Virus record (IMG/VR): IMGVR_UViG_3300005918_000016
From: a virus
Lineage: Duplodnaviria; Heunggongvirae; Uroviricota; Caudoviricetes
Reading direction: 5' to 3' (one strand)
Length of the DNA stretch: 64,000 nucleotides
Numbering within the stretch: position 1 is the stretch's first letter; every line of letters starts with the position of its first letter. A model generated the notes under the pieces. It did no database searches and was not told the origin of the DNA. It saw nothing but the letters and a program-made list of their open reading frames with translations. This document shows positions 1,196-28,662 of this stretch, in pieces. Position numbers and translations under genes: made by a program.

Positions 1196-2095
1196 ATGAT
1201 GACGCTTTGGATGAAACTGGCGGTCTTAGCCGTCCTGGGGACAACGACCCCGGAGCAGACCACCCACCCTGCATATACCCCGTACTCTTACGACCAGACC
1301 CTCACTGCAGTGGCGGAGACCATCACAGCGGAAGAGGCTGAGTTGATCCTCACCGTTGACGTGGAGGAGGAGATCAACTACTGGATGATCAAGGAGCACT
1401 TCGGGTTCGATGACACCGTAATAGAGGACATCCTACATGTGGCCTTGCACACGGCAGAGGAGCCGATGCTCATCGCCCACATTGTTTCCACGGAAAGCGG
1501 TGGGGACCGTGACGTCATCAACTACTGTAAGGTGTGGGGTGAGCCCTTCTACAACGAGAGCAAAGAACGCTGGGAGAAGAAGTGCGTCAAGCTCGGCTCC
1601 TGCTACACGAACTGCCGGAAAAAGCGGCATGTTTGGAGGAACCACCTCGACGTCGGTCTGTATCAGCTTCGGGACGTGGTCGAGCGGGTCGGTGGCCCTG
1701 AGGACTCCAAGCGGTTCTGCGGGTGGTCCTGGTTGCGAGACTTTGAACGGGACACGGGTCGGGATGTGTCCTCTGAGTGCGCCCTGGAGCGTTTCTGTGC
1801 CCGTGACGCAATGATCCACGCCGTACACACCCTCCGGGAGGAACAGCTTGCAGCGGCCCACAGGGGCGTTGGTAAGGCCAACTGCCGGGGTCTCCCTGAC
1901 GAATGGAAGTGGATGGGCCTGTGGAACGGTTGCAAGAGCGCCAGGAACCATGCAGACCACACTGCTCCCCTGGTTGAGATGCGGGACTTCCACGTCCGTC
2001 TGACGATGTTGCGGTACCGTATTGATGAGATTGCCGAGAAATGGCCGCTCTTGGGCTACCTCATTGTGCCCCTGAAAGGACAAAAGGTAGTTTGA
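1196..2095 (+). CDS. secreted SLT-like (lytic transglycosylase-like) protein
   Basis: RBS AGGAGG 8 nt upstream of ATG. N-terminal hydrophobic signal-like segment. ESGG and GLYQL motifs resemble SLT-domain E-S and GLMQ motifs. GAGTAG box at 1165. Confidence 0.5.
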   Translation: MMTLWMKLAVLAVLGTTTPEQTTHPAYTPYSYDQTLTAVAETITAEEAELILTVDVEEEINYWMIKEHFGFDDTVIEDILHVALHTAEEPMLIAHIVSTESGGDRDVINYCKVWGEPFYNESKERWEKKCVKLGSCYTNCRKKRHVWRNHLDVGLYQLRDVVERVGGPEDSKRFCGWSWLRDFERDTGRDVSSECALERFCARDAMIHAVHTLREEQLAAAHRGVGKANCRGLPDEWKWMGLWNGCKSARNHADHTAPLVEMRDFHVRLTMLRYRIDEIAEKWPLLGYLIVPLKGQKVV

Positions 2096-2124: not shown

Positions 2125-2148
2125 GTCGTATCCTTTGACAAAGGGTAC
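2125..2148 (+). repeat. 5' portion of a CRISPR-repeat-like unit (GTCGTATCCTTTGACAAAGGGTAC) interrupted by a mini-IS
   Basis: Matches repeat positions 1-24 with point changes. Separated from the 3' portion at 2497-2510 by the inserted element. Confidence 0.6.
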
Positions 2149-2496
2149 TTGACAGTGCCCTTCATACCTGCTAAAGTCTAACTGTTCCTGCTTGAAACAG
2201 GGAGCTGTTGCGGCAGGAAAGCTCATGCTGATTGGGTAGGAGGTTCTGGTGTGCCCAGATGTTCTGGGGACGAACGCATCAAAACTAACGATCATCCGAG
2301 AGGCATAAAACGAGTGCTAAGAGAGCGATTCCGTGTTAAACGGACCAGTTCCTTGGGATTCGGACGGAAGGAGCAACCGTCATTCGAGCCCTTACCGTTG
2401 GGCCGGAAGTTTACTACCGAGGTACTTGGGACACCAAGATTCGGCACAGCTTCAAACTTGATGCCTGTTACATTTTAGCAGGTTTTAAGGAACGGT
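2143..2496 (+). mobile_element. MITE-like deletion derivative of a TnpB (IS200/605/607-type) element: left end fused to the last ~280 nt (tnpB 3' end, omegaRNA, right end)
   Basis: Left end GGGTACTTGACAGTGCCC...CTTGAAACAGG is shared with the full copy at 55573-55646. Internal junction at 2216/2217 joins the left end directly to tnpB codons (CGRKAHADWVGSAG). Right end terminates ...GGTTTTAAGGAACGGT, as in all four copies. Confidence 0.7.
2217..2496 (+). ncRNA. omegaRNA (reRNA)-like scaffold of TnpB element, orphan copy
   Basis: About 280-nt block conserved in four copies (2217-2496, 19520-19800 minus, 35221-35506, 54133-54430 minus). It overlaps the tnpB 3' end and reaches the right end, which is the expected omegaRNA position. 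Confidence 0.55.
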
Positions 2497-2510
2497 ATGT
2501 GGATTGAAAC
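2497..2510 (+). repeat. 3' portion of the interrupted CRISPR-repeat-like unit (ATGTGGATTGAAAC)
   Basis: Identical to the repeat 3' handle GTGGATTGAAAC immediately after the mini-IS right end. Confidence 0.6.
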
Positions 2511-4012: not shown

Positions 4013-4062
4013 CGTTTCATTCTCCTCAGGGGTCATTTGCCCCTCACTTACTCTACTCAGCG

Positions 4063-4090
4063 GGGTCAGCAGATGATCCCATTGCACGTA
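4063..4090 (-). promoter_or_regulatory. GGGATCATC-N13-GAGTAG promoter-like motif (minus-strand instance) with UTR hairpin at 4028-4045
   Basis: Plus strand reads CTACTC-N13-GATGATCCC; exact 13-nt spacer. Lies upstream of the DUF262 gene start at 4012. Confidence 0.55.
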
Positions 4091-4148: not shown

Positions 4149-4176
4149 TTGATCATCTCAGATTCCGTTGGAGTAG
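4149..4176 (+). promoter_or_regulatory. TTGATCATC-N13-GAGTAG promoter-like motif
   Basis: Exact 13-nt spacing. Hairpin CGGGGTGGACCCCCG and AAGGAG follow; ATG at 4237. Confidence 0.5.
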
Positions 4177-6208: not shown

Positions 6209-6772
6209 ATGAGCCTCACACTAGAAGACCTCCAAGATCACAAGAAGGTCAGTTGGGATACCTTCCGTTCGGTGCCGCTCGGGTTGCACGAAGGGGAGGA
6301 ACTGGAGATCCGGTTCCTGCTGAACAAGGCTGGGGAGCACAAAATCGGCCTGTTTGACCCACGGCGCCACTGGTGGTCGGTGTGCTCATCCACTACGGAG
6401 GAAGCGGACGCAGTTGTCAGCTTCAACGCCATCCTTGGTGCCGTCCCTACCCCGCTGCAAAGGAAAACCATCACCTTCCAGTCTGAGGGGGACAGCAAAC
6501 CGGATTTCGAAAAGGGTGAGGATGAGGTCGTCAACTACCACCTCACCCTGTACGGCATGTTCGTTGGCAATCTCCGAGTCGGCAAATTCCAGGGTCAGGT
6601 AGAGCACTACGACACGATACTCTTCCCCGAATCAGCGCAGGACGATGCCGCCTATCAGATGCAGTACGGACAGCTTGTGCTCGCCTGTTACGAGTTCGTG
6701 CGGGGCCTCTACGACGCCCACGCTGCCGCTGCCCTTAGCCCCGTGGGATCATCTCCGGCACCCACAGAGTAG
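6209..6772 (+). CDS. hypothetical protein; C-terminus GSSPAPTE overlaps the promoter motif
   Basis: AAGGAG RBS. Stop TAG is the last 3 nt of GAGTAG. Confidence 0.5.
   Translation: MSLTLEDLQDHKKVSWDTFRSVPLGLHEGEELEIRFLLNKAGEHKIGLFDPRRHWWSVCSSTTEEADAVVSFNAILGAVPTPLQRKTITFQSEGDSKPDFEKGEDEVVNYHLTLYGMFVGNLRVGKFQGQVEHYDTILFPESAQDDAAYQMQYGQLVLACYEFVRGLYDAHAAAALSPVGSSPAPTE
6745..6772 (+). promoter_or_regulatory. GGGATCATC-N13-GAGTAG motif
   Basis: Exact consensus; GGAGGTG RBS and ATG at 6795 follow. Confidence 0.55.
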
Positions 6773-6995: not shown

Positions 6996-7445
6996 TTGGG
7001 ACTCCGACAACCACCGGGGGTTATCATCGAAGCCCCACGTCCGTCCCTGTGCCTGCACCCGGACGATCATCCTTTATGGGAAACAATGGAACGGCTGGCT
7101 TGGGTTCTTGCGAACAGTCACGGTCTACCCCTCCATTTTGTAGAACCCAAACGTAGACCCCTGTCCGATGGAGCAGCGGGAGTATGCTATTGCCACGAGA
7201 GGCGTATTGCAATCCGGCTCCGGTGTAAGGATCGTGTAGAAGACGGCGGGGGGTGGTGGTCGAAGCCAGACCCCTGGGATCAGATCGTATTGACGGTTGC
7301 CCATGAGGTTGCCCACCTCCGACATCCCAATCACGGAGCAGACTTCAAGGACCTGGAACAACGCCTGTACCGAGAAGCTCAGGAACTGCTAGGGTGTTGG
7401 GATCATCCCCGGCACCCACAGAGTAGACAGGGTGAGGGGGAATGA
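6996..7445 (+). CDS. SprT-like zinc metallopeptidase (HEVAHLRHPNH); the true start is probably the ATG at 7086
   Basis: HExxH...H motif as in SprT/WLM-type domains. Confidence 0.5.
   Translation: MGLRQPPGVIIEAPRPSLCLHPDDHPLWETMERLAWVLANSHGLPLHFVEPKRRPLSDGAAGVCYCHERRIAIRLRCKDRVEDGGGWWSKPDPWDQIVLTVAHEVAHLRHPNHGADFKDLEQRLYREAQELLGCWDHPRHPQSRQGEGE
7399..7426 (+). promoter_or_regulatory. GGGATCATC-N13-GAGTAG motif with hairpin 7436-7450
   Basis: Exact consensus; GAGGAGG RBS; ATG at 7465. Confidence 0.55.
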
Positions 7446-7464
7446 CCCCCGAGGAGGATCTTAA

Positions 7465-8040
7465 ATGAGTGGCTACCCCACACGATATACTGCAGAAGGT
7501 TGTGACAGCCAATGTGTGTACCGTTCCTGTATGTGGCCGGGTGAGGACAAGGGGATCCTTGCCCAGGGCCGGGGCTACACTCGTTATCACAAGAAACCGC
7601 TCCCCGTCTGTATGCAGAGACATCTTCATGGGTGCCCCTATCTGAAACCCAAACCAGACGTTGAGAACGCCCGATGTTGTTACGCACCCAATTACAAACG
7701 TAAGGGCAAGGCTCCCTCAGGATGGCGTACCTGTGAGACCTGCGGAACAATGGTCCCCCTTCAGGTGGCCAAAGCACTTAACAACCTCCCAAAACGGGAT
7801 GGCGTTCCTTGCCTACATGAACAGGTAGAACCGTCCATCATAACTGGTTGGTTTGAGTGCCCCTCTTGTCGTTACAAGCATAAGGGTGTTTTCGATCATC
7901 GGCCTCTCCCCTTTGAGAAACCGAACAAAACACTGCAAGAACTGTATGACACCCTGGAGGTGCGACTTAACCAAACCGCAGAGAGTGAAATGACTCTTGA
8001 AGGCGGATCGGCGGGATCATCTCCCCGACCCACAGAGTAG
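7465..8040 (+). CDS. Cys-rich hypothetical protein; C-terminus GSSPRPTE
   Basis: Several CxxC pairs. Stop sits inside the next GAGTAG box. Confidence 0.5.
   Translation: MSGYPTRYTAEGCDSQCVYRSCMWPGEDKGILAQGRGYTRYHKKPLPVCMQRHLHGCPYLKPKPDVENARCCYAPNYKRKGKAPSGWRTCETCGTMVPLQVAKALNNLPKRDGVPCLHEQVEPSIITGWFECPSCRYKHKGVFDHRPLPFEKPNKTLQELYDTLEVRLNQTAESEMTLEGGSAGSSPRPTE
8013..8040 (+). promoter_or_regulatory. GGGATCATC-N13-GAGTAG motif with hairpin 8049-8065
   Basis: Exact consensus; GGGAGG; ATG at 8077. Confidence 0.55.
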
Positions 8041-8076
8041 TTAAGGTGAGGGGCAAATGACCCCTGGGAGGATGCG

Positions 8077-9968: not shown

Positions 9969-10003
9969 TGAAGGACGATCATCAACGGATACCTGAGAAG
10001 GAA

Positions 10004-10031
10004 GAGATCATCCTGGTGTCCGGTTGAGTAG
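10004..10031 (+). promoter_or_regulatory. GAGATCATC-N13-GAGTAG motif with hairpin 10040-10056
   Basis: 13-nt spacer; AAAGGAG; ATG at 10074. Confidence 0.5.
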
Positions 10032-10073
10032 TACAGGTGAGGGGCAAAGGACCCCTGACAAAGGAGCCCAACG

Positions 10074-10343
10074 ATGACGACATCACTGAACCCCGTTGAC
10101 TGGGACGACGACCATGTGGTCGTTATTTCCTTCCTCCACAACCATGGAAGCAACTCCCGGTACCTGACTGCCAACGAACAATGGTATGTGTTTTGCCGTG
10201 GTAACGGATTCGGAAACTGTACTTCCGAACAACTGGAACACAGCGGTTGGAACTGGTCACACGTCAGGGATTCAGACGATACAGGATATGCAAGGATGGC
10301 CAACTGTGTGCGAGAACTGGTGCCCGAGGCGGAACAGAAATAA
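10074..10343 (+). CDS. hypothetical protein
   Basis: Motif plus RBS. Confidence 0.4.
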   Translation: MTTSLNPVDWDDDHVVVISFLHNHGSNSRYLTANEQWYVFCRGNGFGNCTSEQLEHSGWNWSHVRDSDDTGYARMANCVRELVPEAEQK

Positions 10344-10359
10344 ACGAAAAGGAGAGAGA

Positions 10360-11017
10360 GATGTCCAAAGACAAAGTGAACTGGAAGCTCCGGTACAAGG
10401 AAACGGCTCAGGCACTTGCTGCCCTGAAACGGGCGGCGTTGATCCAGGGGACGCAGGACCATCTGATCGAGTTGGAACGGACCAAAATCCGGGAGGCTGC
10501 TGTATCCCTTTCCCAGGAGGCTGACAAGGCAAGGGCAATGGGGAAGACCCTCCAGACGACAGTCCTGGATGCTCTCAAGGGCATGGCGACACAGAGCGAC
10601 ACGTTGGGGACCTTAGCCAACTCTCTTGCCACCGACCAGTTCGGCAACAAAGGGTCGGCAGATGCCGTTAAGGAAGCCCTGATGACTATCGGGGTCCTTA
10701 CAGAGGAACGAGACCAGGCGACCGCTCAGGTTGAGGATCTGACCGAGGCTCTCCGGGAGGAGACCAGGGCACGGGTAACCCTGTCCGTGGAACTGAAGGA
10801 TCTCTACCGTAAGGGCGTGCTCGGTACGGACACGGCGAAGATCCTGAACAGACACTTCGGTTCAGCCCTGCGGGCGAGTAATCGTCATCTTCAGGCGCTC
10901 TGGCCTTCCACCGAAACACAGGAAGGACTCCGTCACCTGTTCAATTGGGCCAAGGGTGCCTTGGCCCGTCAGGCAGACCACGAAAAGGGTTTGTCTGAAG
11001 AGGAGACTACCACATGA
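10360..11017 (+). CDS. coiled-coil hypothetical protein
   Basis: AAAAGGAGAG RBS before ATG 10360. Confidence 0.45.
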
Positions 11018-11332: not shown

Positions 11333-11360
11333 GGGATCATCTCACCACCCTGTTGAGTAG
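11333..11360 (+). promoter_or_regulatory. GGGATCATC-N13-GAGTAG motif with hairpin 11369-11385
   Basis: Exact consensus; GGGAGG; ATG at 11399. Confidence 0.55.
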
Positions 11361-11398
11361 TCCAAGTGAGGGGCAAACGTCCCCTGGGAGGCTCACCG

Positions 11399-11802: not shown

Positions 11803-11830
11803 GGGATCATCTCACCGACCTGCTGAGTAG
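11803..11830 (+). promoter_or_regulatory. GGGATCATC-N13-GAGTAG motif with hairpin 11839-11856
   Basis: Exact consensus; AAGGAG; ATG at 11875. Confidence 0.55.
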
Positions 11831-11874
11831 TTAAAGTGAGGGGGCAAATGACCCCTGACAAGGAGACCAACGCA

Positions 11875-12510
11875 ATGAGCAACCCTCAGATAGATACCCT
11901 GGTCAAACGGATCGCCGCCGCTCGGGACGCTTATTACAACGGCTCCCCCATCATGACGGATGTGGTTTACGACGCCCTGGAAGATCAGCTTCGAGCGCTC
12001 GACCCCAAGCACCCGGAACTCCTCAAGGTCGGTGCAGCCCCCGCCCCGGTCAAGGGTGCATGGCCGAAGGTCCGGCACAGCATCCCAATGTCCAGCCTGA
12101 ACAAGGCCCAGGTCGAAACGGATCTGGCTGCGTGGTTCGCCTCGGTGAGCAACGCCGATGTCGCTGTGATGGACAAACTTGATGGTATCTCGTGTTTTGA
12201 TGGGGCTACCCCACTGCATCTGGCTAATGGGGAAACTGTCCCCCTTCAAGAGGTCGTAGAAAAGGGACTGATGCCCCAAGTTTTAACCTGGGATCCTGAA
12301 AGGGGGGTCACCACTGAACAAGTCGTGGCCGTCAAAGACAACGGCATCAAGGATAACTGGGTTCGGGTTACCTTTGAAACGGATCCCCTGCATCTGGGAT
12401 CCTCTGTTGTGGTGACTGAAGACCATCTCTTCTATGTCAAGGATAAAGGGTGGGTTGAAGCTAAAGATCTCACGGGTGAAGACGTGCTTGACTGTACCGA
12501 ACAACCCTGA
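11875..12510 (+). CDS. ligA: NAD-dependent DNA ligase N-terminal fragment (adenylation KLDG) fused to split-intein N-half (~105 aa)
   Basis: N-terminus matches the LigA Ia/adenylation region up to KLDGIS. Then CFDGATPLHL...TEDHLF...DVLDC is Hint-N-like (Cys1, TxxH block) and runs to a stop at 12510. Confidence 0.7.
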   Translation: MSNPQIDTLVKRIAAARDAYYNGSPIMTDVVYDALEDQLRALDPKHPELLKVGAAPAPVKGAWPKVRHSIPMSSLNKAQVETDLAAWFASVSNADVAVMDKLDGISCFDGATPLHLANGETVPLQEVVEKGLMPQVLTWDPERGVTTEQVVAVKDNGIKDNWVRVTFETDPLHLGSSVVVTEDHLFYVKDKGWVEAKDLTGEDVLDCTEQP

Positions 12511-13531
12511 TAGTTTAGACCCCAGGATACCCCATCTAGCGGGTGTCCTGGGGGGCCTTATGTTATTAGGGGACGCTTGGTTTGTTGAACATTTCAGGAA
12601 AACCAGAAAACGGGGTAACACGATAGCTGGTCGTCAATGGACCTTGCGAGTAAAGCAAGAAAAACCTGTCCTGACAAAAATTTGTGACCGCTGTGGACAT
12701 AAAGAGATCACCTTATCGAGTCCATTATCTCGGGTTCGGCACGTGGTTAAACAAGCTGTAGAACAGGAACAGAAGTGGGGTCTGCATCTTTGCCCCAAAT
12801 GTGCTCGTAAGGAGGCACGCAAAAAGGCAGCTATTACGAGAGCAACGCCCGGATGGAGTGAGAACTTTGGTCGTCAAGTAGCTTTGGGTCTGGCTTTAAT
12901 ACCGTCAGACAAAAATGCAGAACGATATGAAAGAGCACGTCAAACCCGTATTGCCACCTATTCCCGCATGACACCGAAGGAACGACGCAGAGGTGTCGTC
13001 AAGCAATGGCAAACAATGACGGAGGAGGCTAAACAACGGAGAGCAAAAAAAATAGGCGAGGGTGCCAAAAAAGTTTGGGCCTCATTAACGCCAGAACAAA
13101 GAAACCAACGGGTTGCTCGGATGATCAAGGGGCTCCCTCGATCAAAGATATCGGATGATTTTCGACAACATCTGATAGATGCGAGATTGTATGCAGGCTT
13201 TGTAAGTGAACAAGTCATTTCAGGTTTCACCGTTGATGAGGCTAATGAGACCTTGAAAGTGATCCTTGAGTTCTTTGGGGACTACTATCATTGTAACCCG
13301 AGTAACCCCAAATTCTCAGACCCTGAGTTCTACAACACAACAATCCGAATGACATCGGCCCAAAAATGGCAGTATGATCGCCGTCGTTTAGCGGGACTCA
13401 GAAAAGTAGGGTACCGTATTCTAGTGGTATGGGAAAGTGACTGGCGTAAAAACCCTGAAGATGTGTTGAGCAGAGTGCGGACATTTCTGAATCAGTTTAA
13501 AACGGGATCATCTGCGGACCCCACAGAGTAG
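12434..13531 (+). CDS. free-standing putative homing endonuclease (LAGLIDADG-like HLAGVLGGLMLLGDA plus Vsr/PD-(D/E)xK-like C-terminal domain)
   Basis: Lies between the two intein halves in another frame. C-terminus GDYYHCNP...ILVVWESDW resembles Vsr-type endonuclease folds. Ends GSSADPTE inside a promoter motif. Confidence 0.5.
   Translation: MSRIKGGLKLKISRVKTCLTVPNNPDSLDPRIPHLAGVLGGLMLLGDAWFVEHFRKTRKRGNTIAGRQWTLRVKQEKPVLTKICDRCGHKEITLSSPLSRVRHVVKQAVEQEQKWGLHLCPKCARKEARKKAAITRATPGWSENFGRQVALGLALIPSDKNAERYERARQTRIATYSRMTPKERRRGVVKQWQTMTEEAKQRRAKKIGEGAKKVWASLTPEQRNQRVARMIKGLPRSKISDDFRQHLIDARLYAGFVSEQVISGFTVDEANETLKVILEFFGDYYHCNPSNPKFSDPEFYNTTIRMTSAQKWQYDRRRLAGLRKVGYRILVVWESDWRKNPEDVLSRVRTFLNQFKTGSSADPTE
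13504..13531 (+). promoter_or_regulatory. GGGATCATC-N13-GAGTAG motif located inside the fractured ligase locus
   Basis: Exact consensus; GAGG; ATG at 13563. Confidence 0.55.
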
Positions 13532-13562
13532 ACCTAGTGACGGTCATCAAACGAGGTCTACA

Positions 13563-15428
13563 ATGCGAGTTGCATCCGTTGAGAAAGTACCGGGACCCAG
13601 AAGAGCCTTTGATCTGACAATCCGCAATACGTCCTGTTACTTTGTGGGGCCTGGAATTTTAGCACACAACTGTGGGATGAGATACGAAAACAGGAAGCTA
13701 GTGCAGGCGCTGACACGGGGCGACGGGACGATAGGCGAGGATATCACCCGGAACGTCCTGCTGATGAAGGGTGCAGTCAAGGTACTGCCCCCGACGTTAC
13801 CGGATGGCACCCCCACCCCAGACGATGTGTGGGTGCGGGCCGAGGTTGTGGTGACCCACGATGACTTCGTCACCCACTTCAAGGGCGAATCCAACCCCCG
13901 TAACACGGCGAGCGGCACTGCGAAACGTCAAACTGACAACAGCAAATGTGCCTTCCTGACGGTTATCTGCTATCAACTCCTGCCCGGTGGTCGCCCGATG
14001 GCGTCCAAGAGCGCCGAGTTGAAGGCCCTGGCCACGATGGGCTTCCAGGTACCCCGCTGGGGTGAGTACAAGGGACTGGCAGCAGTGGAGGCCCTCTACC
14101 AGGACTACATCGCCACCGTCAGGAAGAGCCTGGGTTACGATATCGACGGGCTGGTGATCGAGGTGGCTGACGCCAACGCCCGTGCGATGCTTGGGGAACT
14201 GAACAACCGCCCCAAGGGTGCCTGCGCTTATAAGTTTCCTCATGAGTCCAAGCCGACCACGCTGCGGAGCATCCGTTGGCAGGTAGGCAACAGCGGGCGC
14301 ATCACCCCGGTGGCCGAATTTGACGTTGTGAACCTCGCAGGGGCGAACGTCAAACAGGCGAGCCTTCACAACATCAGCAACATCGAAGGGCTGTGGGGCA
14401 AAGCCACTGTTCCGGTACCCGGCGACGCAATTCTCGTTTCTCGCAGAAATGATGTTATCCCCTATGTAGAGGAAGTCCTGAACAAGTTCGGTACAGGCAC
14501 GGGACTCCGCACCCCGACCCAGTGCCCCTCCTGCCAGGGAGCCTTGGTGCGGGACGGCGAGTACCTTGTGTGCCGCAGCGAGGAGTGCCCCGCCCAGGCA
14601 ACCGGGGCCATCAGACGCTGGGTCAAGAAGCTCGGTGTCCTACACGTTGGCGAGACCCTGATCGACGCAATGGTGGATGCGTTCCCTTTCACCCTCACCG
14701 AGGAAGTGTTTGAAGTCACCTTCGGCGTAAAGAAGGATGACGTGAAGACCCTCCCGGCAGCGGATCAGGAACGGATACGCAACGCCCCAATGGACATCGC
14801 TGACCTCTACAACCTGGACCTGGACGAGGTCGCCTCCCTGGAGTTGAGCGGACGGCGTGTCGGCGGCTCGGCGGACAAAGCCCTCAGGAACCTTAACGCC
14901 AAGAAGACGCTGCCCCTGCACGTCCTGATAGGGAGCCTGGGTATCCCCCTGATCGGGCGCAGCATGGCCAAGGTGGTTGTGGACGCTGGATACACCACCC
15001 TGAACCTGCTCTTCAAGGCCAAGGTGCATGTTCCCATCGTCACCAGGGGCAAGACCCTCCCGGCAGTTGCCAGCATCCCTGGAATGGGGGACACGAAAGC
15101 GCTGGCCTTCGTGACGGGATTTGCTGCCAAGGCCGGGCTGATCGTCAAGTTGCGGGCCACGCAAGACCTTGGCGGAGCCGACATCACCATCCAGGACATC
15201 TCCGGGCCGTTGCTCGGGATGACCTTTTGCCTGACTGGCACCCGTGAACCCGCCCTGCTCGATGCTATCGAAAAGGCGGGTGGCACAATGAAGGGCAGCG
15301 TGTCCAAGAAACTATCCTACCTGATCGCCCTGGACCCGGACAGTACCTCGGGCAAAGCGAAAAAGGCCAAGCAGTACGGCGTGAAGGTGATCGGCTTGGA
15401 CGAGGCGTACAAGCTGGCGGGGGTGTGA
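13563..15428 (+). CDS. ligA: split-intein C-half (36 aa, ...GILAHN) fused to the NAD-dependent DNA ligase C-terminal extein (Cys4 Zn finger, HhH, BRCT)
   Basis: MRVASVEKVPGPRRAFDLTIRNTSCYFVGPGILAHN|CGMRYENRKLV...TRGDGTIGEDIT continues the LigA sequence after KLDG. CPSCQG...CRSEECPAQ zinc finger. C-terminal BRCT-like region. Confidence 0.75.
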   Translation: MRVASVEKVPGPRRAFDLTIRNTSCYFVGPGILAHNCGMRYENRKLVQALTRGDGTIGEDITRNVLLMKGAVKVLPPTLPDGTPTPDDVWVRAEVVVTHDDFVTHFKGESNPRNTASGTAKRQTDNSKCAFLTVICYQLLPGGRPMASKSAELKALATMGFQVPRWGEYKGLAAVEALYQDYIATVRKSLGYDIDGLVIEVADANARAMLGELNNRPKGACAYKFPHESKPTTLRSIRWQVGNSGRITPVAEFDVVNLAGANVKQASLHNISNIEGLWGKATVPVPGDAILVSRRNDVIPYVEEVLNKFGTGTGLRTPTQCPSCQGALVRDGEYLVCRSEECPAQATGAIRRWVKKLGVLHVGETLIDAMVDAFPFTLTEEVFEVTFGVKKDDVKTLPAADQERIRNAPMDIADLYNLDLDEVASLELSGRRVGGSADKALRNLNAKKTLPLHVLIGSLGIPLIGRSMAKVVVDAGYTTLNLLFKAKVHVPIVTRGKTLPAVASIPGMGDTKALAFVTGFAAKAGLIVKLRATQDLGGADITIQDISGPLLGMTFCLTGTREPALLDAIEKAGGTMKGSVSKKLSYLIALDPDSTSGKAKKAKQYGVKVIGLDEAYKLAGV

Positions 15429-15430
15429 CG

Positions 15431-16051
15431 ATGGGTGAGGTCGTACCAGGACCAGGGACGCTTCAGTTTGCGCTGGACAGCATAAATGATCCGGTGTTGC
15501 AAAAGGTTAAGGACCAGCAGCCCCTCACCCCTGAAGACCAAAATCATCTGAGGGAAAAGATGGGGCTTCCTGGTCCTGAGCATGTGCCTTGGGGTCATGG
15601 CCCCTGGAAACGGGACGACCCGGATATGCTCGCCCTTGATTATTTGAAGGACACTACGGTTTTTGGCTCCTGTGATAAGGAGACAGATGAATACCTGGAG
15701 AACACAATCTGGGAGTGGTACCGAGGTGTGAGACTCGCATTCCAAGAGTGTGGGTGCCAAAACTGCATGCAGATTGGAGAGGCAAAAACGATGACAGCGC
15801 CCGCTGCAATTGCCCGTGGTGAAAGGCACTACGCAGCCGTAATGAACAAACGCCTGCCACGGGGGTGGAGAAAACAGCCTAAAGTGCTGGCCCTCATTGC
15901 CAAGTTTGACCAGGAACTGAAGGCAGCAGGCAACGATCTCATGCGGACGGCACGGGGGGACAACTACGCTGGGGATACAGCACCTGAGGCAACCGGGCCA
16001 ATCGGAAAGGAATGGACCCTTCGGGAATGGCCTCGGGAGTACAGTTGGTGA
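15431..16051 (+). CDS. hypothetical protein, paralog of 16725-17348
   Basis: Shares GPGTLQFA...CGCxNC...ARGERxxAxxMNK...GWRKxPxVLAxI with the downstream paralog. Confidence 0.5.
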   Translation: MGEVVPGPGTLQFALDSINDPVLQKVKDQQPLTPEDQNHLREKMGLPGPEHVPWGHGPWKRDDPDMLALDYLKDTTVFGSCDKETDEYLENTIWEWYRGVRLAFQECGCQNCMQIGEAKTMTAPAAIARGERHYAAVMNKRLPRGWRKQPKVLALIAKFDQELKAAGNDLMRTARGDNYAGDTAPEATGPIGKEWTLREWPREYSW

Positions 16052-16662
16052 TGAACACTGAGGCTACAAACGTCACCAGCCAGTGGTTGGGACAGAACTG
16101 GCAGACCTTTCAGGAAGCGGGACATTACGGTCTCCGTACCTGGGCGGTGCCCATCCCTTCAAGTGATGTGGAGGACGTGATCCAGGACACGGCCATACAA
16201 TTCATTCATGTCGATGCTCTTCGCTTCTTCATTCACCGGGAAGGGGAGGAACTGAAAAGCTCTCTGACCTTAGACCGACTAGGTCTGTTTATAGCCCGTA
16301 AGGCCATCAAGTGGCTCCAACGAGCCGGTCAAGACGTAGTTCCCCGTAGCAGCCTGGGGGCACAGACAAAATGGGAGTGGCAAGGCAAAACCACAGCACC
16401 ACAGCCGCCCACATCGTATGAAGTGGACCCGTCGAACAGCCAATGGACAGCGGGTTGTCAAATGGAGCTTGTGGAGTCCGTTTGCACTCAGATCTTTCCG
16501 GACAACGCTGAACGGTACGTGGCTATCATCAAACGAAGGGTTGAAGGTTACAGCCAGACTGAGATAGCCGCAGAGTTCGGTTCTACTAAGGGTCGGATCG
16601 GTCGTGTTCTCCAGCGTGTTCGTCGGGAGTTTCAGCCCTTCCGGGAGGCCCTTTGCAGTTGA
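16051..16662 (+). CDS. ECF-type sigma-70 family factor (regions 2 and 4)
   Basis: DVEDVIQDTAIQFI resembles ECF region 2. C-terminal RRVEGYSQTEIAAEFGSTKGRIGRVLQRVRREF resembles the region 4.2 HTH. ATGA overlap with the upstream stop. Confidence 0.55.
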   Translation: MNTEATNVTSQWLGQNWQTFQEAGHYGLRTWAVPIPSSDVEDVIQDTAIQFIHVDALRFFIHREGEELKSSLTLDRLGLFIARKAIKWLQRAGQDVVPRSSLGAQTKWEWQGKTTAPQPPTSYEVDPSNSQWTAGCQMELVESVCTQIFPDNAERYVAIIKRRVEGYSQTEIAAEFGSTKGRIGRVLQRVRREFQPFREALCS

Positions 16663-16663: not shown

Positions 16664-16691
16664 GGGATCATCTGTGGCGGCGGCAGAGTAG
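16664..16691 (+). promoter_or_regulatory. GGGATCATC-N13-GAGTAG motif
   Basis: Exact consensus; GAGGA; ATG at 16725. Confidence 0.55.
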
Positions 16692-16724: not shown

Positions 16725-17348
16725 ATGGACAATGTCATACCAGGGCCGGGCACGCTTCAGTTTGCCTTTAACCAGATGAAGGATCCGCTGGATCGGAAGT
16801 TCATTGACCACCCGGAACTCGTCACGGACGAGGAAATAAAGGAGATGGCCGCTCGGTTGCCTGGAGGTAAAGGCCATCACACTTGGCCCGAAGGTCCCTG
16901 GCAGCGGGAAGGGCTTGACCTGTTTGATATGATCATCGCAAACTTCAGTGATGACATCCTCAAAAACCCCATCAACCCAGACAACCTCGATGATGAGGAT
17001 GCCTTGGAATACACGATCAGTCAGTGGTACTTGGATGTTCGCTTTGTCTTTCGTCCTTGTGGTTGTGGGAACTGCGGGGATGCCGGGGATGCCGTAACGT
17101 GTATTGTCCCCGAGGCTATTACTCGGGGAGAACGAAGATTTGCTCCCATCATGAACAAATACCACACAAAGGGATGGCGCAAACACCCCAGAGTACTTGC
17201 CTTCATTCGACAATTTGACGGCGAATTGGAGGCAGCGGACTGGGACCTGATGAAAACCAAACGATGGCATGAATACGCCTGCTCATCGGCACCACTTTTG
17301 ACGCACCGTTGGGCCAATTGGTCTCTCCAAGAATGGCCCCGGCAATGA
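16725..17348 (+). CDS. hypothetical protein, paralog of 15431-16051
   Basis: See paralog entry. Confidence 0.5.
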   Translation: MDNVIPGPGTLQFAFNQMKDPLDRKFIDHPELVTDEEIKEMAARLPGGKGHHTWPEGPWQREGLDLFDMIIANFSDDILKNPINPDNLDDEDALEYTISQWYLDVRFVFRPCGCGNCGDAGDAVTCIVPEAITRGERRFAPIMNKYHTKGWRKHPRVLAFIRQFDGELEAADWDLMKTKRWHEYACSSAPLLTHRWANWSLQEWPRQ

Positions 17349-17376: not shown

Positions 17377-17619
17377 ATGATGATCACAGGACAGCATAAG
17401 GTTCTCATGGCCGACATGACCTGGAAGGCAGCTCAGGATGTGACGGTGGGAGACCTGTTGAGTGTTCCTTGGCTGATTGGTGCTATCGGTGCTGATGGGT
17501 CTACGGAGGCACCGGCCCGGTTCCCTCTGGACCAGGGTCATCTCAAGGTGTCCCCTGGGGGGACGGTGGTCCGAATCCTGCAGATCAGTAGGACACTGGA
17601 CAAGAAACGGGGAGACTGA
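17377..17619 (+). CDS. hypothetical protein
   Basis: AAGGAGAC RBS. Confidence 0.4.
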   Translation: MMITGQHKVLMADMTWKAAQDVTVGDLLSVPWLIGAIGADGSTEAPARFPLDQGHLKVSPGGTVVRILQISRTLDKKRGD

Positions 17620-17621
17620 TC

Positions 17622-17903
17622 GTGCGTAAAACGAACAAGACCCAGGACGGGCGGGTGACCTACTGGGTCGAGCACACGGACCCTGAGGAGCGTGGCAACT
17701 CCTGGTCGGTGGCTGGCCGTGGTGTTTTCCAGTTTTCCCATGAGGACGGCACAACCTTCTCTGCCTCAACGGTCAGCAAACTGGCATATGGGAAAACGGA
17801 AGCCCACGCTATCAAGGGCCTGGAGCGACGGTTCCTGAAGTCCCTGACTCGGGTCGCCGCCCTCATCAACGGAGCACAGGAACAAACGGGAGAGACGACA
17901 TGA
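17622..17903 (+). CDS. hypothetical protein (GTG start)
   Basis: Compact spacing. Confidence 0.35.
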   Translation: MRKTNKTQDGRVTYWVEHTDPEERGNSWSVAGRGVFQFSHEDGTTFSASTVSKLAYGKTEAHAIKGLERRFLKSLTRVAALINGAQEQTGETT

Positions 17904-19199: not shown

Positions 19200-19463
19200 A
19201 TGGCTTCAAAGCGAGATCCCCTCTGGTACGAGTTCATTGTACGGACACTCCCAAAATGGTTCGACCCGAAGGTCCACAGTGCCAACATGACGGTCCCCAT
19301 CTGTGGCCTCTGTGGGTGCAGCGGACGCCTTGATCAGCCGGTACCGGGGTGGGATGCCCGTCTCAAGGGCTTCTGCATCTGTCCCAACGGACGAGCGTTG
19401 AAGCGTCAGGTTCGGAAGGCGGAACTGAAACGCCTGAAAGCGGAAGAGGAAGCAGATGACTGA
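19200..19463 (+). CDS. Cys-rich small protein
   Basis: CGLCGCSG...CICPNG. Confidence 0.35.
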   Translation: MASKRDPLWYEFIVRTLPKWFDPKVHSANMTVPICGLCGCSGRLDQPVPGWDARLKGFCICPNGRALKRQVRKAELKRLKAEEEADD

Positions 19464-19519
19464 ATCAATGACACGAACCGATGCTGCTGCTATCCTTGAC
19501 TGCCCCGAGGAGGTACTCA

Positions 19520-19800
19520 ACCGTTCCTTAAAACCTGCTAAAATGTAACAGGCATCAAGTTTGAAGCTGTGCCGAATCTTGGTGACCCAAGTACCTCGGT
19601 AGTAAACCTCCGGCCCAACGGTAAGGGCTCGATTGACGACCGCTCTAATCGCCCGAATCCTAAGGAACTGGTCCGTCGAAGACGGAATCGCTCTCTCAGC
19701 ACTCGTTTTACGCCTCGTGGATGATCGCCAGCTTTGGTGTGTTCATTCCCAGAACATCTGGGCACACCAGAACCTCCTACCCAATCAGCATAAGCCTTCC
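19520..19800 (-). ncRNA. omegaRNA-like scaffold, orphan copy
   Basis: Conserved ~280-nt block. Confidence 0.55.
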
Positions 19801-19873
19801 TGCCACAACAGCTCCCTGTTTCAAGCAGGAATAGTTAGACTTTAGTAAGTTTGAGGGGTACTGTCAAGTACCC
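19520..19873 (-). mobile_element. second MITE-like TnpB-element derivative (left end plus omegaRNA/right end, no tnpB)
   Basis: Same left-end/internal-deletion junction as the 2143-2496 copy. Right end ...GGAACGGT at 19520 (minus). Confidence 0.7.
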
Positions 19874-19890
19874 TCCACCATGGGGATTGT

Positions 19891-20217
19891 GTGGGGGCAG
19901 ATTCTGAGGCTGACTCTGTTGCTGAGGAGCTTGGTTTGTACCGTGTCACACACCCGCCTGAAAACCCGAAAAACCGAGCCTACTGTGTAGCTGATGAAAC
20001 CCATCCCCTCAAACCCTATACCGTCCGTGACCATGACATTGTAGACGCCTCTCAAATTCTAGTGGCGTGCTCGAAAGCAATGCATGAGATACAGCGCTCA
20101 GGTACATGGGCAACCGTCAGGTATGCTCAAAAACGGAAACGCCCCGTCCTGGTCGTTTGGCCGGATGGCACTGTCGGCACCTTGTGGTATGGTGCTGTTG
20201 GGACTAAGCTACATTAG
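19891..20217 (+). CDS. hypothetical protein (start uncertain; 5' end abuts the mini-IS left end)
   Basis: ORF begins at a GTG 18 nt from the element end. Confidence 0.3.
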   Translation: MGADSEADSVAEELGLYRVTHPPENPKNRAYCVADETHPLKPYTVRDHDIVDASQILVACSKAMHEIQRSGTWATVRYAQKRKRPVLVVWPDGTVGTLWYGAVGTKLH

Positions 20218-23179: not shown

Positions 23180-23365
23180 ATGGAGCCCATCCTTCTGACT
23201 ATCAACGAGGTTGCCCGTTTGTTCGGGATGCACCCAAATTCGATCCGTAAACTCATGGGCGATGGCAGACTACCCTTTCTTAAGATCGATAAGTCGCTGC
23301 GGTTCGAAACTGATGCCGTGATGCTATTTATTGAGAAACTCAGGAAACAGAGAGCGAAGGATTGA
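23180..23365 (+). CDS. small HTH DNA-binding protein (excisionase/MerR-like)
   Basis: LTINEVARLFGMHPNSIRKLMGDG helix-turn-helix. Confidence 0.5.
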   Translation: MEPILLTINEVARLFGMHPNSIRKLMGDGRLPFLKIDKSLRFETDAVMLFIEKLRKQRAKD

Positions 23366-24761
23366 CGTCTTGAAAGTCACTCGCATTCTTCAGGCAGATG
23401 TTCCGCCTGCTTTGTTGCAGGTGTGTCGAGCTACCAGATTTCTTCGTGCAGATGTCTGGCGTCGGTACGGTGCCCTGAAGAACGTGGGTAAAAGTGCCTT
23501 GGCTATCCGTAAAGAAATTGTAGCAGGTGGCATCTACGTCACTCTCGCCATAGACGGGACCATACGTAACGAAACAACCAAAGATGTCGTGAACGACATC
23601 CTGTTCTACAAAGCAGCAGCGAAAGGAAAGGTTCGCAAAGCCATTTGGCAGCGCACCGACAATGAAATGGAACGCAAACGACTCTACACGCTTCTGCGAT
23701 CAGACGCATGGATGGAGGATCCCTTCCTTCACCGCCAAATGCGTAAACACTTCAAGCACGGCGTCTCACACACGAAAAATCAGTTTATCGTGAGGTCCGA
23801 CAAATTCAAAATAGAGCACGTTAATGGGTATCTGACGATCGTCATCCAAATTGCCCGTAAATACGGTGACGACATAGTTCTAACGACAACGTCAAACGGC
23901 ACGAGTGTGGATCTGAGTAGCTGTAACCTACGCATCATTGTGAAGGGTGGTACAACTGAGATCCACTACAGCGTGGATAAAAGCAGTGGGCGTCCGCATG
24001 GTAGCCGGACGCTGGGCGTTGATAAAGGCTACACCGAAGCATTTGTTGATTCGGATGGTGAGCATCAGGGTGAGCAGTTCGGTGCTGTGATGACTGAGTA
24101 CAGCGACAAGGTCAGCAAGACGGGTTCCGCTAGAAACAAGTTGTACGCCCTAGAAAAAAAGCATCGTCAAAGCGGAAACTCCAGAAAAGCTGACAACATC
24201 AGGGCACACAACCTTGGGTGTAAAAAGATTGATGCTCGTAAACGATTGGCTCAAACACGACTACGGGGTGTAGCCTTTAAGGCTGCTCATGCCATCGTGG
24301 ATAAGGCAGCGGTGGTCGTGTCAGAAGACTTAACCTCTCCGATCGCAAAAAAGCGACCTTGGAAAAGGTTTAATAGAAGAATGAGTGGCTGGGCAAAGGG
24401 AGCACTTGCTGAGGCCCTCGATTCAGTTTGTACGCAGCGTGAAGCCAGCCATGAGTTGGTAAACTGTGCTTACACATCGCAAATGGACTCTGTAACGGGT
24501 TTGCTGCAAGGCAAGCGTGTTGGAGACAAATTTTACCGTATTAACGGGGATGTTATTCAGGCCGATCACAATGCTGCGCTGAACGTGTTAGCCCGGTTGT
24601 CTGACAAGGACATCGGGTGTTTCACCCCTTATCAAGAGGTAAAACGCATCTTGTTGGCACGTTCTCCGGCGGAACTGACCGTCAAAAGGCACGAGTTGCA
24701 GTCGAGAGGCTCTCAACCGTGTGCGGATAAACCCTCACGATCAGGAGTGATCAATGCTTGA
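23331..24761 (+). CDS. divergent TnpB/RuvC-like nuclease lacking zinc-finger cysteines
   Basis: GVDKGYTEAF (RuvC-I-like), VVVSEDL (RuvC-II E), ADHNAALNV (RuvC-III). The usual CxxC...CxxC ZnF between RuvC-II and III is absent. Confidence 0.5.
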   Translation: MRNSGNRERRIDVLKVTRILQADVPPALLQVCRATRFLRADVWRRYGALKNVGKSALAIRKEIVAGGIYVTLAIDGTIRNETTKDVVNDILFYKAAAKGKVRKAIWQRTDNEMERKRLYTLLRSDAWMEDPFLHRQMRKHFKHGVSHTKNQFIVRSDKFKIEHVNGYLTIVIQIARKYGDDIVLTTTSNGTSVDLSSCNLRIIVKGGTTEIHYSVDKSSGRPHGSRTLGVDKGYTEAFVDSDGEHQGEQFGAVMTEYSDKVSKTGSARNKLYALEKKHRQSGNSRKADNIRAHNLGCKKIDARKRLAQTRLRGVAFKAAHAIVDKAAVVVSEDLTSPIAKKRPWKRFNRRMSGWAKGALAEALDSVCTQREASHELVNCAYTSQMDSVTGLLQGKRVGDKFYRINGDVIQADHNAALNVLARLSDKDIGCFTPYQEVKRILLARSPAELTVKRHELQSRGSQPCADKPSRSGVINA

Positions 24762-25065
24762 GGAACAGCAGATGGTTGCCGTTCTCGTCGCTGCTGGTAC
24801 GTCCGCCTACGGGGACGACAGCAAACTGACTGATACCGCTCGTGACTGGCTCTCCGCAAGGTTTTCCCCCGAGGACACACAGTTCTGGTTGGAAGCTGGC
24901 TGCTGGGATGTCAAGGTCGCCAGGGCCTTCAAGGACGCTGACCTGGACTCCGAGGACGTAGAGTTCGAAACTGCCAAGCCCACCAAGAGCACGATTGCCC
25001 ATAAGGTCTGCGCCGGGGAGATATCCCTGAACGCCGCCATCCGCATCGCCAAGAGCCGCCAGTAG
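24754..25065 (+). CDS. hypothetical protein
   Basis: RBS AGGAG. Confidence 0.4.
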   Translation: MLEEQQMVAVLVAAGTSAYGDDSKLTDTARDWLSARFSPEDTQFWLEAGCWDVKVARAFKDADLDSEDVEFETAKPTKSTIAHKVCAGEISLNAAIRIAKSRQ

Positions 25066-25090
25066 ATCATCGACCTAGCTGTGCGAGTAG
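25063..25090 (+). promoter_or_regulatory. TAGATCATC-N13-GAGTAG motif
   Basis: Exact spacing; AGGAGG; ATG at 25112. Confidence 0.5.
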
Positions 25091-28291: not shown

Positions 28292-28662
28292 GCCTCCTCG
28301 AAACACTCCAGAACGTAGACTGCGCCACGCCGTGCCTGAAGTGTGGTCGCCACCTTGAATGGAACAGGCACGCCCACCATGTGGAGGGCAATGACTTGGT
28401 CCTGGGTTGCCCCGACTGTAGTAAAGGGACGGAAGGCCTCCCCTGCCATCACCGTACTGTTCTGGGGGCAACTCCGCCGAGAGATCCTCGGAAGATCATC
28501 CTCGGACATTCGGGAGTAGACCCTGTGAGGAGGAAGGATGGGCAGGTTGCTTCAGTTCGAAGATGGTGTACTCCGCAGGAAACTCCAAGAGTTGCTCATC
28601 AGCGTCGACCGGCTCGACTTCAAATTCCTCCGTTTCTTCACCATTTGTGTCGGGTGTGGTAA
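28288..28662 (+). CDS. Cys-rich zinc-ribbon protein (TTG start; 3' end overlaps the next gene, extent uncertain)
   Basis: CLKCGRH...CPDC. Confidence 0.3.
   Translation: MSLLETLQNVDCATPCLKCGRHLEWNRHAHHVEGNDLVLGCPDCSKGTEGLPCHHRTVLGATPPRDPRKIILGHSGVDPVRRKDGQVASVRRWCTPQETPRVAHQRRPARLQIPPFLHHLCRVW
28492..28519 (+). promoter_or_regulatory. AAGATCATC-N13-GAGTAG motif
   Basis: 13-nt spacer; GAGGAGGAAGG; ATG at 28538. Confidence 0.5.

Follow-up and report, generated by a model that had tools for sequence, protein, structure and literature searches.

The gene at positions 16051-16662 (+ strand) of a 64,000-nt stretch of viral DNA (IMG/VR record IMGVR_UViG_3300005918_000016; the whole stretch is called the window below) is surrounded by copies of a bipartite, promoter-like motif, and the question raised by this locus is whether its 203-aa product is a sigma factor and whether it reads these promoters, as proposed in a preliminary description. 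Sequence comparison supports the assignment of the element to a large phage, because the related contigs are IMG/VR viral contigs with rIIA (E 1e-92), HNH/LAGLIDADG homing endonucleases, and intein-containing PolA. The phage or mobile-element origin suggested earlier agrees with the identical or related sequence on IMG/VR viral contigs and with the phage-type genes of the relatives. The examined parts showed neither a capsid nor a terminase gene. A search for the host through the closest TnpB in reference genomes was uninformative, leading to two short MAG contigs of different phyla (Actinomycetota and Pseudomonadota).

The motif GGGATCATC-N13-GAGTAG is present in 12 exact copies in the window vs 0.00 expected from shuffles, and a relaxed form (at most one mismatch in GATCAT, exact GAGTAG, and 14-nt spacing) is present in 23 copies, 22 on the + strand and one on the - strand. 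Looser criteria yield 28-29 matches, some of them chance-like, so the earlier figure of about 27 promoter copies was of the right order of magnitude. Two exact copies bracket the sigma gene: one at 13504-13531 (+) heads the operon that contains it and is a candidate autoregulation site, and one at 16664-16691 (+), starting 2 nt after the sigma stop codon, heads paralogue B and the genes downstream of it. The other exact copies are found at 6745-6772, 7399-7426, 8013-8040, 11333-11360, 11803-11830 (heading the gene for a ligase N-terminal part plus intein-N), 35961-35988, 38107-38134, 39985-40012, and 56073-56100 on the + strand, and at 4053-4080 as the sole minus-strand copy. The variant copies, all on the + strand, are located at 4149-4176 (TTGATCATC, 5' of an SPFH/Band7 gene at 4237), 10004-10031 (GAGATCATC), 25063-25090, 28492-28519, 32602-32629 (GATTATC), 37843-37870 (GGTCATC), 41987-42014, 47547-47574 (5' of a DHH/DHHA1 phosphoesterase gene), 52029-52056 (GATCATT), 58434-58461 (5' of an 863-aa gene), and 61086-61113 (5' of a 565-aa gene). 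A 5' leader hairpin follows the copies at 7399, 8013, 10004, 11333, and 11803; as a general feature the hairpin was rejected, as it occurs at only about 8 of the 23 sites and the mean leader folding energy equals that of random window segments.

Each motif copy lies 13-60 nt 5' of a Shine-Dalgarno (SD) sequence and start codon, and the spacer between the two hexamers is variable in sequence and fixed in length. The orientation always agrees with that of the downstream gene, and the one divergent pair (4053-4080 and 4149-4176) is located between divergent genes. Sigma-70-type promoters are not enriched in the window (6 found vs 4.0±2.2 expected), and this chance level, together with the promoter-like placement, upholds the earlier view of the motif as non-sigma70. 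The intergenic regions of the window show no other prominent conserved motif. The TAG of GAGTAG doubles as the stop codon of the upstream gene at 6772, 8040, and 13531; terminator-like sites in the window are at chance level with no T-run after the motif, and an Rfam and tRNA scan of the window gave no match. Among 98 non-redundant motif copies in related IMG/VR contigs, flanking positions that had not been selected for are also conserved (GG at 78% and 89%, C at 82%). Within IMG/VR the window motif clusters in multi-hit contigs, whereas a control pattern of equal information (the L104-type promoter described below, whose lineage is absent there and which serves as a background control) is found as singletons only. 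A repeated consensus of non-host type is therefore found upstream of phage operons in company with a sigma gene, and judged by its sequence and placement the motif is probably the promoter set of these operons.

The reading frame at 16051-16662 (+) is present as described earlier, and the two peptides quoted for it, DVEDVIQDTAIQFI and YSQTEIAAEFGSTKGRIGRVLQRVRREF, are located at aa 39-52 and aa 167-194 of the translation. The ATG at 16051 is the likely start codon, because the equivalent MNxTAxW is the N-terminus of all seven sigma homologues and GGGAG is found 11 nt 5' of the ATG. The translational coupling to the upstream gene claimed in the preliminary description holds as an overlap and fails in its 4-nt ATGA form: the actual sequence is TGATG, in which the stop codon of paralogue A (16049-16051) and the sigma start codon (16051-16053) have a single base in common. 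By their coordinates, the sigma homologues in four other lineages (L003, L101, L104, and L106) overlap their upstream genes by 4 nt.

The 203-aa protein is best read as a divergent two-domain ECF-type factor of the sigma-70 family, with a sigma2-like part at about aa 8-105 (nt 16072-16365), a disordered linker at about aa 106-129 (aa 106-132 being of low confidence in the AF2 model), and a sigma4 helix-turn-helix (HTH) part at about aa 130-202 (nt 16438-16656). The preliminary description had called it ECF-like and proposed HMM searches and structure prediction as checks. NCBIfam TIGR02937 (sigma70-ECF) aligns as a single segment, with model positions 27-161 of 165 on aa 39-194 (E 2.3e-5), Pfam matches are obtained to Sigma70_r4_2 (E 8e-4), Sigma70_ECF (E 0.013), and Sigma70_r4 (E 0.015), and PHROG sigma-factor families match at E about 1e-3. 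The HMM check thus returned matches to sigma-70 and ECF models with scores under the curated cut-offs: 24.1 vs 42.9 for TIGR02937, 19.4 vs 25.7 bits for PF08281 (r4_2), and 15.9 vs 21.1 for PF07638. Standard ECF models typically miss phage ECFs on account of their divergence (PMC7826278). Across the family, Sigma70_r4_2 is matched by 4 of the 8 members (best E 1.1e-6) and Pfam Sigma70_r2 by one member only (E 0.097). The family profile has ECF SigE and SigR as its best PDB matches, and hhalign aligns it to E. coli RpoE with a probability of 93% (E 3e-7) over 141 columns covering both sigma2 and sigma4 (query 34-194 to RpoE 40-181, the N-terminal part being aa 34-112 to RpoE 40-109). In this alignment the segment VEDVIQD, which contains the family-invariant Asp D42, is placed on VPDVVQE of RpoE in sigma region 2.

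The predicted structure is in line with these matches. The AF2 model (pLDDT 77.6) consists of two helical domains separated by the disordered linker, its best 50 Foldseek matches in the PDB are all sigma factors, mostly ECF, with 190-205 columns aligned for a query of 203 residues, and the best matches in BFVD are phage ECF-type sigmas. As in the ECF (group 4) family, a sigma4 domain with regions 4.1-4.2 (HTH) is present, regions 1.1 and 3 are absent, and the protein is about 200 aa in length with a short linker. A putative sigma2 domain is supported by TIGR02937 from aa 39 onward, by hhalign, and by Foldseek, none of these matches being individually significant for the N-terminal domain alone. 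The probable sigma identity is carried by the convergence of these sequence and model-based lines rather than by one strong match.

The sigma gene is located in an operon whose first gene (13563-15428, +) encodes, as one fusion, an intein C-terminal piece (...ILAHN/C) and the C-terminal portion of an NAD-dependent DNA ligase, and no terminator-like site is found on the + strand between 13531 and 16662. Paralogue A (15425-16051, +; 206-208 aa) lies between the ligase gene and the sigma gene, and paralogue B (16725-17348, +; 207 aa) on the far side of the sigma gene. The flanking genes are paralogous as proposed (43% identity, E 2e-52) and both contain CGCxNC; the second motif, given earlier as ARGERxxA for both, is ARGERHYA in A and TRGERRFA in B. 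Neither has a Pfam, NCBIfam, or PHROG match, anti-sigma domains included, and their homologues are confined to near-identical phages and close relatives.

The sigma family is tiny: in a set of 1.84 billion representatives it makes up 8 clusters, and the contigs that carry them are all phage-like, with lengths of 1-418 kb. The 7 clusters other than that of the window sigma were found by exhaustive HMMER and are 21-40% identical to it. The L104 contig, at 418 kb, is megaphage-sized, and L003 has two sigma paralogues. Searched by tblastn, 50,697 phage records yielded a chance-level match to the sigma only, a word-indexed protein search with the sigma or paralogue B returned only the query itself, and a search of related loci with single proteins turned up nothing beyond one fragment and an identical contig of 5.5 kb, present in IMG/VR and JGI. 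In about 390 kb from 12 related contigs using the same promoter, no sigma homologue was found except in the 5.5-kb contig identical to the window in this region, and the relative L034 has no sigma gene at the syntenic position behind the ligase. The family is uncatalogued and known only from uncultured large phages.

The argument that the sigma reads the motif comes from these distant homologues. The closest one (40% identity, on a contig of 46% GC) has GATCATC-N13-GAGTAG directly 5' of its gene. In L003 the motif is GCTTAG-N14-SAGTAG (6 exact copies vs 0 expected) and in L104 it is GCTTAC-N14-GCGTAG (9 exact vs 0 expected). Wherever a lineage with a sigma homologue offers sufficient DNA for a judgement, it has a bipartite motif of its own with this hexamer-N14-hexamer geometry, sigma and motif co-occurring in four lineages; no clear motif could be defined in L101, and in L106 the -35 part is uncertain and the conserved GTTTCC sits inside terminator-like hairpins. 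Because distant phages with sigma homologues have their own motif of the same geometry, the comparison suggests that sigma and promoters co-evolve across lineages. The lineage's own motif, a predicted promoter, stands at the head of the sigma-containing operon in the window, L001, L003, and L104, so that by motif presence the layout is that of autoregulation, with the putative target promoter upstream of the sigma's own operon. Autoregulation is usual for ECFs, whose genes typically follow their own promoter (PMC7826278). Neither a further sigma nor an RNA polymerase (RNAP) domain was found in the 53 ORFs of the window (64 kb of a genome of probably >200 kb) or in 55 large ORFs of related contigs, and a phage RNAP or another sigma may lie beyond the visible 64 kb. 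The earlier proposal of the sigma as a candidate reader of the motif gains support from the lineage-specific motifs, and the pairing is one that we infer.

We lean toward the reading, rather probable on the sequence evidence, that an ECF-type sigma redirects host RNAP to GATCATC/GAGTAG promoters, its own operon included. The gene at 16051-16662 would encode a highly divergent group-4 (ECF-type) sigma of a large lytic phage, whose sigma2 domain would bind the host RNAP core and read the -10-like GAGTAG, and whose sigma4 HTH would read the -35-like (GG)GATCATC, 14 nt upstream hexamer to hexamer (counted alternatively as GATCAT-N16-GTAG, the spacing would be of the ECF type). Host RNAP would be redirected to about 23 phage operons in the 64-kb window, and the promoter at 13504-13531 would let the factor boost its own production, which is usual for ECF sigmas. 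Since the sigma's own operon would be sigma-dependent, a bootstrap step would be needed, and the first low level of sigma would come from elsewhere, i.e., from read-through, weak recognition by the host holoenzyme, or delivered protein.

The chief rival is that the protein is a genuine phage sigma that reads another promoter class, e.g., late promoters outside the window, while GATCATC/GAGTAG is read by another phage specificity factor, a phage RNA polymerase, or a host alternative sigma. We rate it unlikely but deserving of weight, as the position of the sigma gene downstream of a GATCATC/GAGTAG promoter is what a temporal cascade would predict for a target of this class and not for its reader, the 390 kb of motif-rich relatives are without a sigma homologue, the two paralogues in L003 indicate that these phages can have more than one specificity, and the window protein and its closest homologue have a common -35 element yet a poorly conserved sigma4 recognition helix. 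Against it, the window has no second intergenic motif and only chance-level sigma-70-like sites, no domain of an RNAP or of a further sigma was detected in the window or in the large ORFs of relatives, sigma homologues and lineage-specific motifs of one bipartite geometry occur together in three independent lineages, and ECF sigma genes are typically preceded by their own promoter (PMC7826278). It is very improbable that the protein is an ordinary activator or repressor with a DNA-binding HTH (LuxR/GerE-, KorA-, or small-terminase-like fold), because TIGR02937 and hhalign align the N-terminal domain as well and in the correct order, the invariant D42 falls on RpoE region 2, the Foldseek alignments to ECF sigmas run over nearly the whole protein with no non-sigma in the PDB top 50, the BFVD top matches are phage ECF sigmas, and the size and two-domain-plus-linker layout are ECF-like.

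The motif itself could be another punctuation signal (an RNA processing site, a terminator or anti-terminator, or a regulator site) with the sigma gene nearby by coincidence. The copies that overlap upstream stop codons, and so also mark gene ends, and the conserved hairpin after some copies would fit such a signal, which we nevertheless hold to be highly improbable: two hexamers with a spacer of fixed length and variable sequence are the signature of sigma-type recognition, and the consistent orientation, the divergent pair, the short distance to SD and start codon, the missing T-run, the chance-level terminator-like sites, and the lack of an Rfam family all speak for a promoter. A further proposal is a role of the flanking paralogues as sigma regulators, for which anti-sigma had been one speculation. 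[quoted passage not shown] The anti-sigma idea found no backing, as neither paralogue has an anti-sigma domain match or homologues outside this group of phages, and no such domain is encoded by the neighbours; in BLASTP comparisons the genes beside the sigma homologues in L003, L101, L104, and L106 are related neither to the paralogues nor to each other. The cluster differs from that of ZAS anti-sigma factors, which is HxxxCxxC, and the structure prediction for paralogue B (pLDDT 41) was not good enough to compare its fold with others. A novel type of anti-sigma, or a co-factor, is accordingly quite doubtful.

If the sigma/promoter pairing holds, it gives an operon map for genomes otherwise more than 80% unannotated and a handle on the phage transcription programme in metatranscriptomes, and synthetic biology would gain candidate orthogonal parts. 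The most prominent DNA repeat of these genomes would be accounted for, and a function would be assigned to an uncatalogued family of uncultured large phages, some of megaphage size. A more far-reaching version, which we regard as speculative and improbable, is a self-contained orthogonal transcription system in which nearly every operon, including the sigma's own, depends on the phage sigma, with an unusual bootstrap (virion delivery or a cryptic early promoter), co-diverged sigma/promoter pairs, and orphan paralogues as possible new sigma partners. If true, GATCAT/GAGTAG, GCTTAG/SAGTAG, and GCTTAC/GCGTAG would belong to naturally occurring sigma/promoter pairs, each orthogonal to the others.

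The highly repeated phage-specific promoter and the apparent independence from host promoter specificity resemble the systems of T7-type RNAP and of phiKZ/AR9 non-virion RNAP with its sigma-like subunits. In those systems the polymerase is phage-encoded and the promoters are contiguous, AT-rich, or read on the template strand (PMC9209446, PMC5449584). Here, in contrast, the window ORFs and the large ORFs of relatives yielded no RNAP gene, and the promoter is bipartite with sigma-type geometry. Phage sigmas that have been studied include Bacillus SPO1 gp28 and gp33/34, T4 gp55, and phiEco32 gp36. Like such alternative sigmas, the window protein would replace the host sigma on the host core RNAP and lead it to phage-specific promoters, and its top viral structural matches are ECF-type sigmas annotated in Cronobacter phage GAP52 and Agrobacterium phage Atu_ph04. 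It differs from the known phage sigmas in having no sequence relationship to them (by tblastn against the phage records), in the restriction of its family to 8 clusters in uncultured large phages, and in that one motif heads most visible operons, the sigma's own included, and not those of a clearly distinct middle or late set.

Compared with bacterial ECF (group 4) sigmas such as E. coli sigmaE/RpoE and M. tuberculosis SigH, SigL, and SigE, the window protein has the same size of about 200 aa, a putative sigma2 and a sigma4 domain only, a flexible linker, and an 'EGxSxxEIA...' sigma4 HTH, and these sigmas are its best structural and profile matches; the putative target promoter is likewise bipartite with a fixed spacer, and the gene lies behind a copy of it. 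The usual ECF -35 element contains 'AAC', which the window hexamers GATCAT and GAGTAG do not. Also unlike bacterial ECFs, the window protein scores under every curated model cut-off, has no recognisable anti-sigma, and, being phage-encoded, would serve a whole-genome programme and not a stress regulon. That phages encode their own sigma factors is known, hence no conceptual surprise is involved, and at this locus an uncatalogued protein family most likely serves a phage strategy of a known kind.

The open reading frame at 16051-16662 (plus strand) was recovered as it stands in the preliminary description, and its translation contains both of the peptides quoted there. A longer version of the frame reaches back to 16012, but the likely start codon is the ATG at 16051: the equivalent MNxTAxW opens all seven homologues, and 11 nt before this ATG there is a GGGAG. 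The TGA stop codon of the upstream gene (16049-16051) shares one base with this ATG in the sequence TGATG, so the two genes are coupled as had been proposed, although by this single base and not by a 4-nt ATGA overlap; a 4-nt overlap with the upstream gene is found in the homologous sigma genes of four other phage contigs.

Single-sequence HMM searches gave weak matches that all pointed in the same direction, i.e., Pfam Sigma70_r4_2 (E = 8e-4), Sigma70_ECF (E = 0.013) and Sigma70_r4 (E = 0.015), NCBIfam TIGR02937 of the sigma70-ECF superfamily (E = 2.3e-5; a single stretch, aa 39-194 against positions 27-161 of the 165-position model), and two PHROG sigma-factor families (E about 1e-3). Every one of these matches misses its curated cut-off. 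Standard models usually fail to capture phage ECFs, which are too divergent for them (ECF reclassification paper, PMC7826278). An exhaustive HMMER search of 1.84 billion cluster representatives yielded only seven more clusters that align end to end, with 21-40% identity. Among the eight family members four matched Sigma70_r4_2 (best E = 1.1e-6), and the family profile ranked the ECF factors SigE and SigR at the top of a PDB sequence search. When the family was aligned by hhalign with E. coli RpoE, aa 34-194 paired with RpoE 40-181, sigma2 then sigma4 in order (probability 93%, E = 3e-7, 141 columns).

In the AlphaFold2 model built on the family alignment (pLDDT 77.6), a disordered linker connects two helical bundles. 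The top 50 Foldseek matches in the PDB were all sigma factors, mostly ECF (SigH, SigL, sigmaE, CnrH and AlgU), over 190-205 columns; their E-values start at a modest 4e-3 and their TM-scores are low, the latter as expected for two domains free in relative orientation. Against viral models, the best structural matches were phage proteins that carry an ECF-type sigma factor annotation. We conclude that the protein is very probably a member of the ECF-type sigma-70 family, with a very divergent sigma2 domain.

The repeated promoter motif was confirmed: GGGATCATC-N13-GAGTAG occurs in 12 exact copies (0.00 expected), and 23 copies are found when one mismatch is tolerated in GATCAT. Of these, 22 lie on the plus strand; the exception, 4053-4080 on the minus strand, pairs divergently with 4149-4176 where the genes themselves diverge. 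Every copy is followed 13-60 nt downstream by a Shine-Dalgarno sequence (SD) and a start codon. The 14-nt distance from GATCAT to GAGTAG does not vary, while the sequence in between does, which is the hallmark of an element read by two protein domains. The IMG/VR copies of the exact 28-nt pattern cluster in a dozen contigs, the longest of 217 kb and some holding over 20 copies, whereas a control pattern with the same information content gave single hits only. Among 98 non-redundant copies from related contigs, conservation extends to positions that were not selected for: the GG preceding GATCAT (78% and 89%) and the C that follows it (82%), as well as a C two bases ahead of GAGTAG (74%) and a T seven bases behind it (64%). 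Around the sigma gene, neither sigma-70-type promoters (6 found, 4.0±2.2 expected) nor intrinsic terminators (15 found, 11.9±3.6 expected) depart from chance level. At 6770-6772, 8038-8040 and 13529-13531 the TAG of GAGTAG is also the stop codon of the upstream ORF, and in L003, a locus on a 50-kb contig, most upstream genes end at the TAG of the -35 hexamer GCTTAG; gene ends and promoters are therefore very tightly packed.

A subset of the promoters clustered at 4-12 kb carries a conserved leader hairpin, GAGGGGCAAATGACCCCTG, which begins 7 nt after GAGTAG and has the SD directly behind it (4029-4047 on the minus strand, 7433-7450, 8047-8065, 10038-10056, 11367-11385 and 11837-11856; a degenerate copy lies at 35995). 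It has no match in Rfam. Analogous hairpins such as GGGCACGGACGATGCCCC stand behind the promoters of the phage carrying L104, a locus on a 418-kb contig, where a hairpin and SD follow most motif copies.

The evidence linking the sigma factor to the motif is comparative and not direct. In P0002, the closest homologue (40% identity; contig of 46% GC), GATCATC-N13-GAGTAG stands 24 nt ahead of the start codon. The operons of L003 are preceded by GCTTAG-N14-(G/C)AGTAG (6 exact copies, 0 expected), and L104 carries GCTTAC-N14-GCGTAG(AT) (9 exact copies including one divergent pair, 0 expected); another related locus, L106, has a repeated CCGTAATACTGAC element without a clear -35 part. Judged from these sequences, the geometry of the motif is constant and the hexamers differ per lineage, which fits a phage-encoded specificity factor and not a conserved host housekeeping sigma. 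The motif of its own lineage heads the sigma-containing operon in the window, L001, L003 and L104, in agreement with the autoregulation usual in ECFs (PMC7826278). L003 contains two sigma paralogues 5 kb apart (10001-10633, behind a 297-aa gene, and 15416-16054, behind an RNA ligase gene); its promoters fall into GAGTAG and CAGTAG variants of the -10 part, which might correspond to two specificities.

The main rival reading is that the window protein is a sigma factor for another promoter class. No second sigma factor or RNA polymerase domain was detected by a Pfam scan of 53 window ORFs, among the 25 most-matched families listed for 46 related-contig ORFs of at least 330 aa, or in single Pfam scans of the nine largest of those 46. 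The window is only part of a genome of probably more than 200 kb, and a sigma homologue is absent from about 390 kb of motif-rich related contigs. In L034, other genes follow the ligase at this position. P0002 and the window protein have the -35 element in common and well-conserved sigma2 halves, and they differ in the sigma4 recognition helix. A sigma factor required for its own operon would also need a bootstrap step. Given these weaknesses, we hold recognition of the GATCATC/GAGTAG promoters by the window sigma to be reasonably probable and not firmer, and we regard a sigma for another promoter class as unlikely.

The flanking ORFs (15425-16051 and 16725-17348) are true paralogues, as described earlier (43% identity, E = 2e-52), and have in common a CxCxxC cluster and several invariant motifs. 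The speculation that they could act as anti-sigma factors found no backing: neither matched Pfam, NCBIfam or PHROGs, and the genes adjoining other sigma homologues are unrelated to them. No homologue beyond near-identical phages was found for either in about 1 Mb of related phage DNA, or for the downstream one in a search of 5.8 billion sequences; its predicted structure reached a pLDDT of 41 only. By position an anti-sigma or co-factor role is conceivable, and we consider it very unlikely.

A ligase gene (NAD-dependent DNA or RNA ligase) is located a short way upstream or downstream of the sigma gene in most lineages and is its only recurring neighbour (window, L003, L104, L002 and the contig of the homologue P0005). 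In the window (11875-15428) the NAD-dependent DNA ligase is broken at the KLDGIS active-site motif. An N-part with an intein N-piece (CFDGATPL…; about 11875-12430) is followed by a free-standing DUF559/MTES_1575-like endonuclease gene (12434-13531) and then by an intein C-piece (…ILAHN/C) with the remaining ligase under its own promoter (13563-15428). The fractured form recurs in L034; in the close relative L100 the ligase is intact (702 aa) and a GIY-YIG endonuclease comes before it. A small ORF at 17377-17619 (MMITGQHKVLMADMTWKAAQDVTVGDLL…) resembles a Hint/intein N-terminal block and is followed by an unannotated ORF (17622-17903); 17377-17903 has no family match and may be a further intein remnant or a bacterial-intein-like domain. 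The L104 contig (BUCK21-1 scaffold_4), which is of megaphage size and carries the sigma homologue P0007, has separate adenylation/OB and HhH ligase genes followed by a GIY-YIG endonuclease gene, and a peptide-chain release factor (PCRF/RF-1 domains) across two adjacent ORFs (19331-20012).

The element is a large lytic phage. Its relatives encode rIIA (E = 1e-92), HNH and LAGLIDADG homing endonucleases, an intein-containing family-A DNA polymerase, Cpn60, RtcB and a type I-C cas3/csd1 module. The window itself (56% GC) is almost wholly unannotated and transcribed mainly rightward. Positions 1-924 are a CRISPR array in which the 36-nt repeat GTCGCATCCTCTAACAAAGGATGCGTGGATTGAAAC occurs at least 12 times with 34-38 nt spacers; the array extends upstream in L011 (IMG/VR contig 3300025669_002088), and ORF calls within it are spurious. 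Since L011 carries genes for a Cas3-like helicase and Cas8c/Csd1, and its end matches window 1-1220 at 100% identity, the phage carries a type I-C-like CRISPR-Cas system. TnpB/IS607 elements are scattered throughout, with Cas12f1-like TNB/OrfB_IS605 genes at 23331-24761, 33315-35491 and 54106-55572 (minus strand) whose GC3 is below that of the surrounding genes; a serine-recombinase/MerR-HTH gene accompanies one of them (IS607-like). End fragments of about 290-360 bp recur, as solo copies in the window (2140-2497 and 19520-19873) and at 84-92% identity in many related contigs, so the insertion elements are active within the phage population.

Lineage-specific sigma/promoter pairs in huge phages would form a tidy, testable system. 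The window protein is of the same build as bacterial ECF sigma factors and shows the ECF architecture, but it differs from that family in scoring below the curated thresholds and in having no identifiable anti-sigma. Its putative mode of working is like that of phage-encoded alternative sigma factors, and the protein, whose family is uncatalogued, is a very divergent addition to the established phage-sigma concept.
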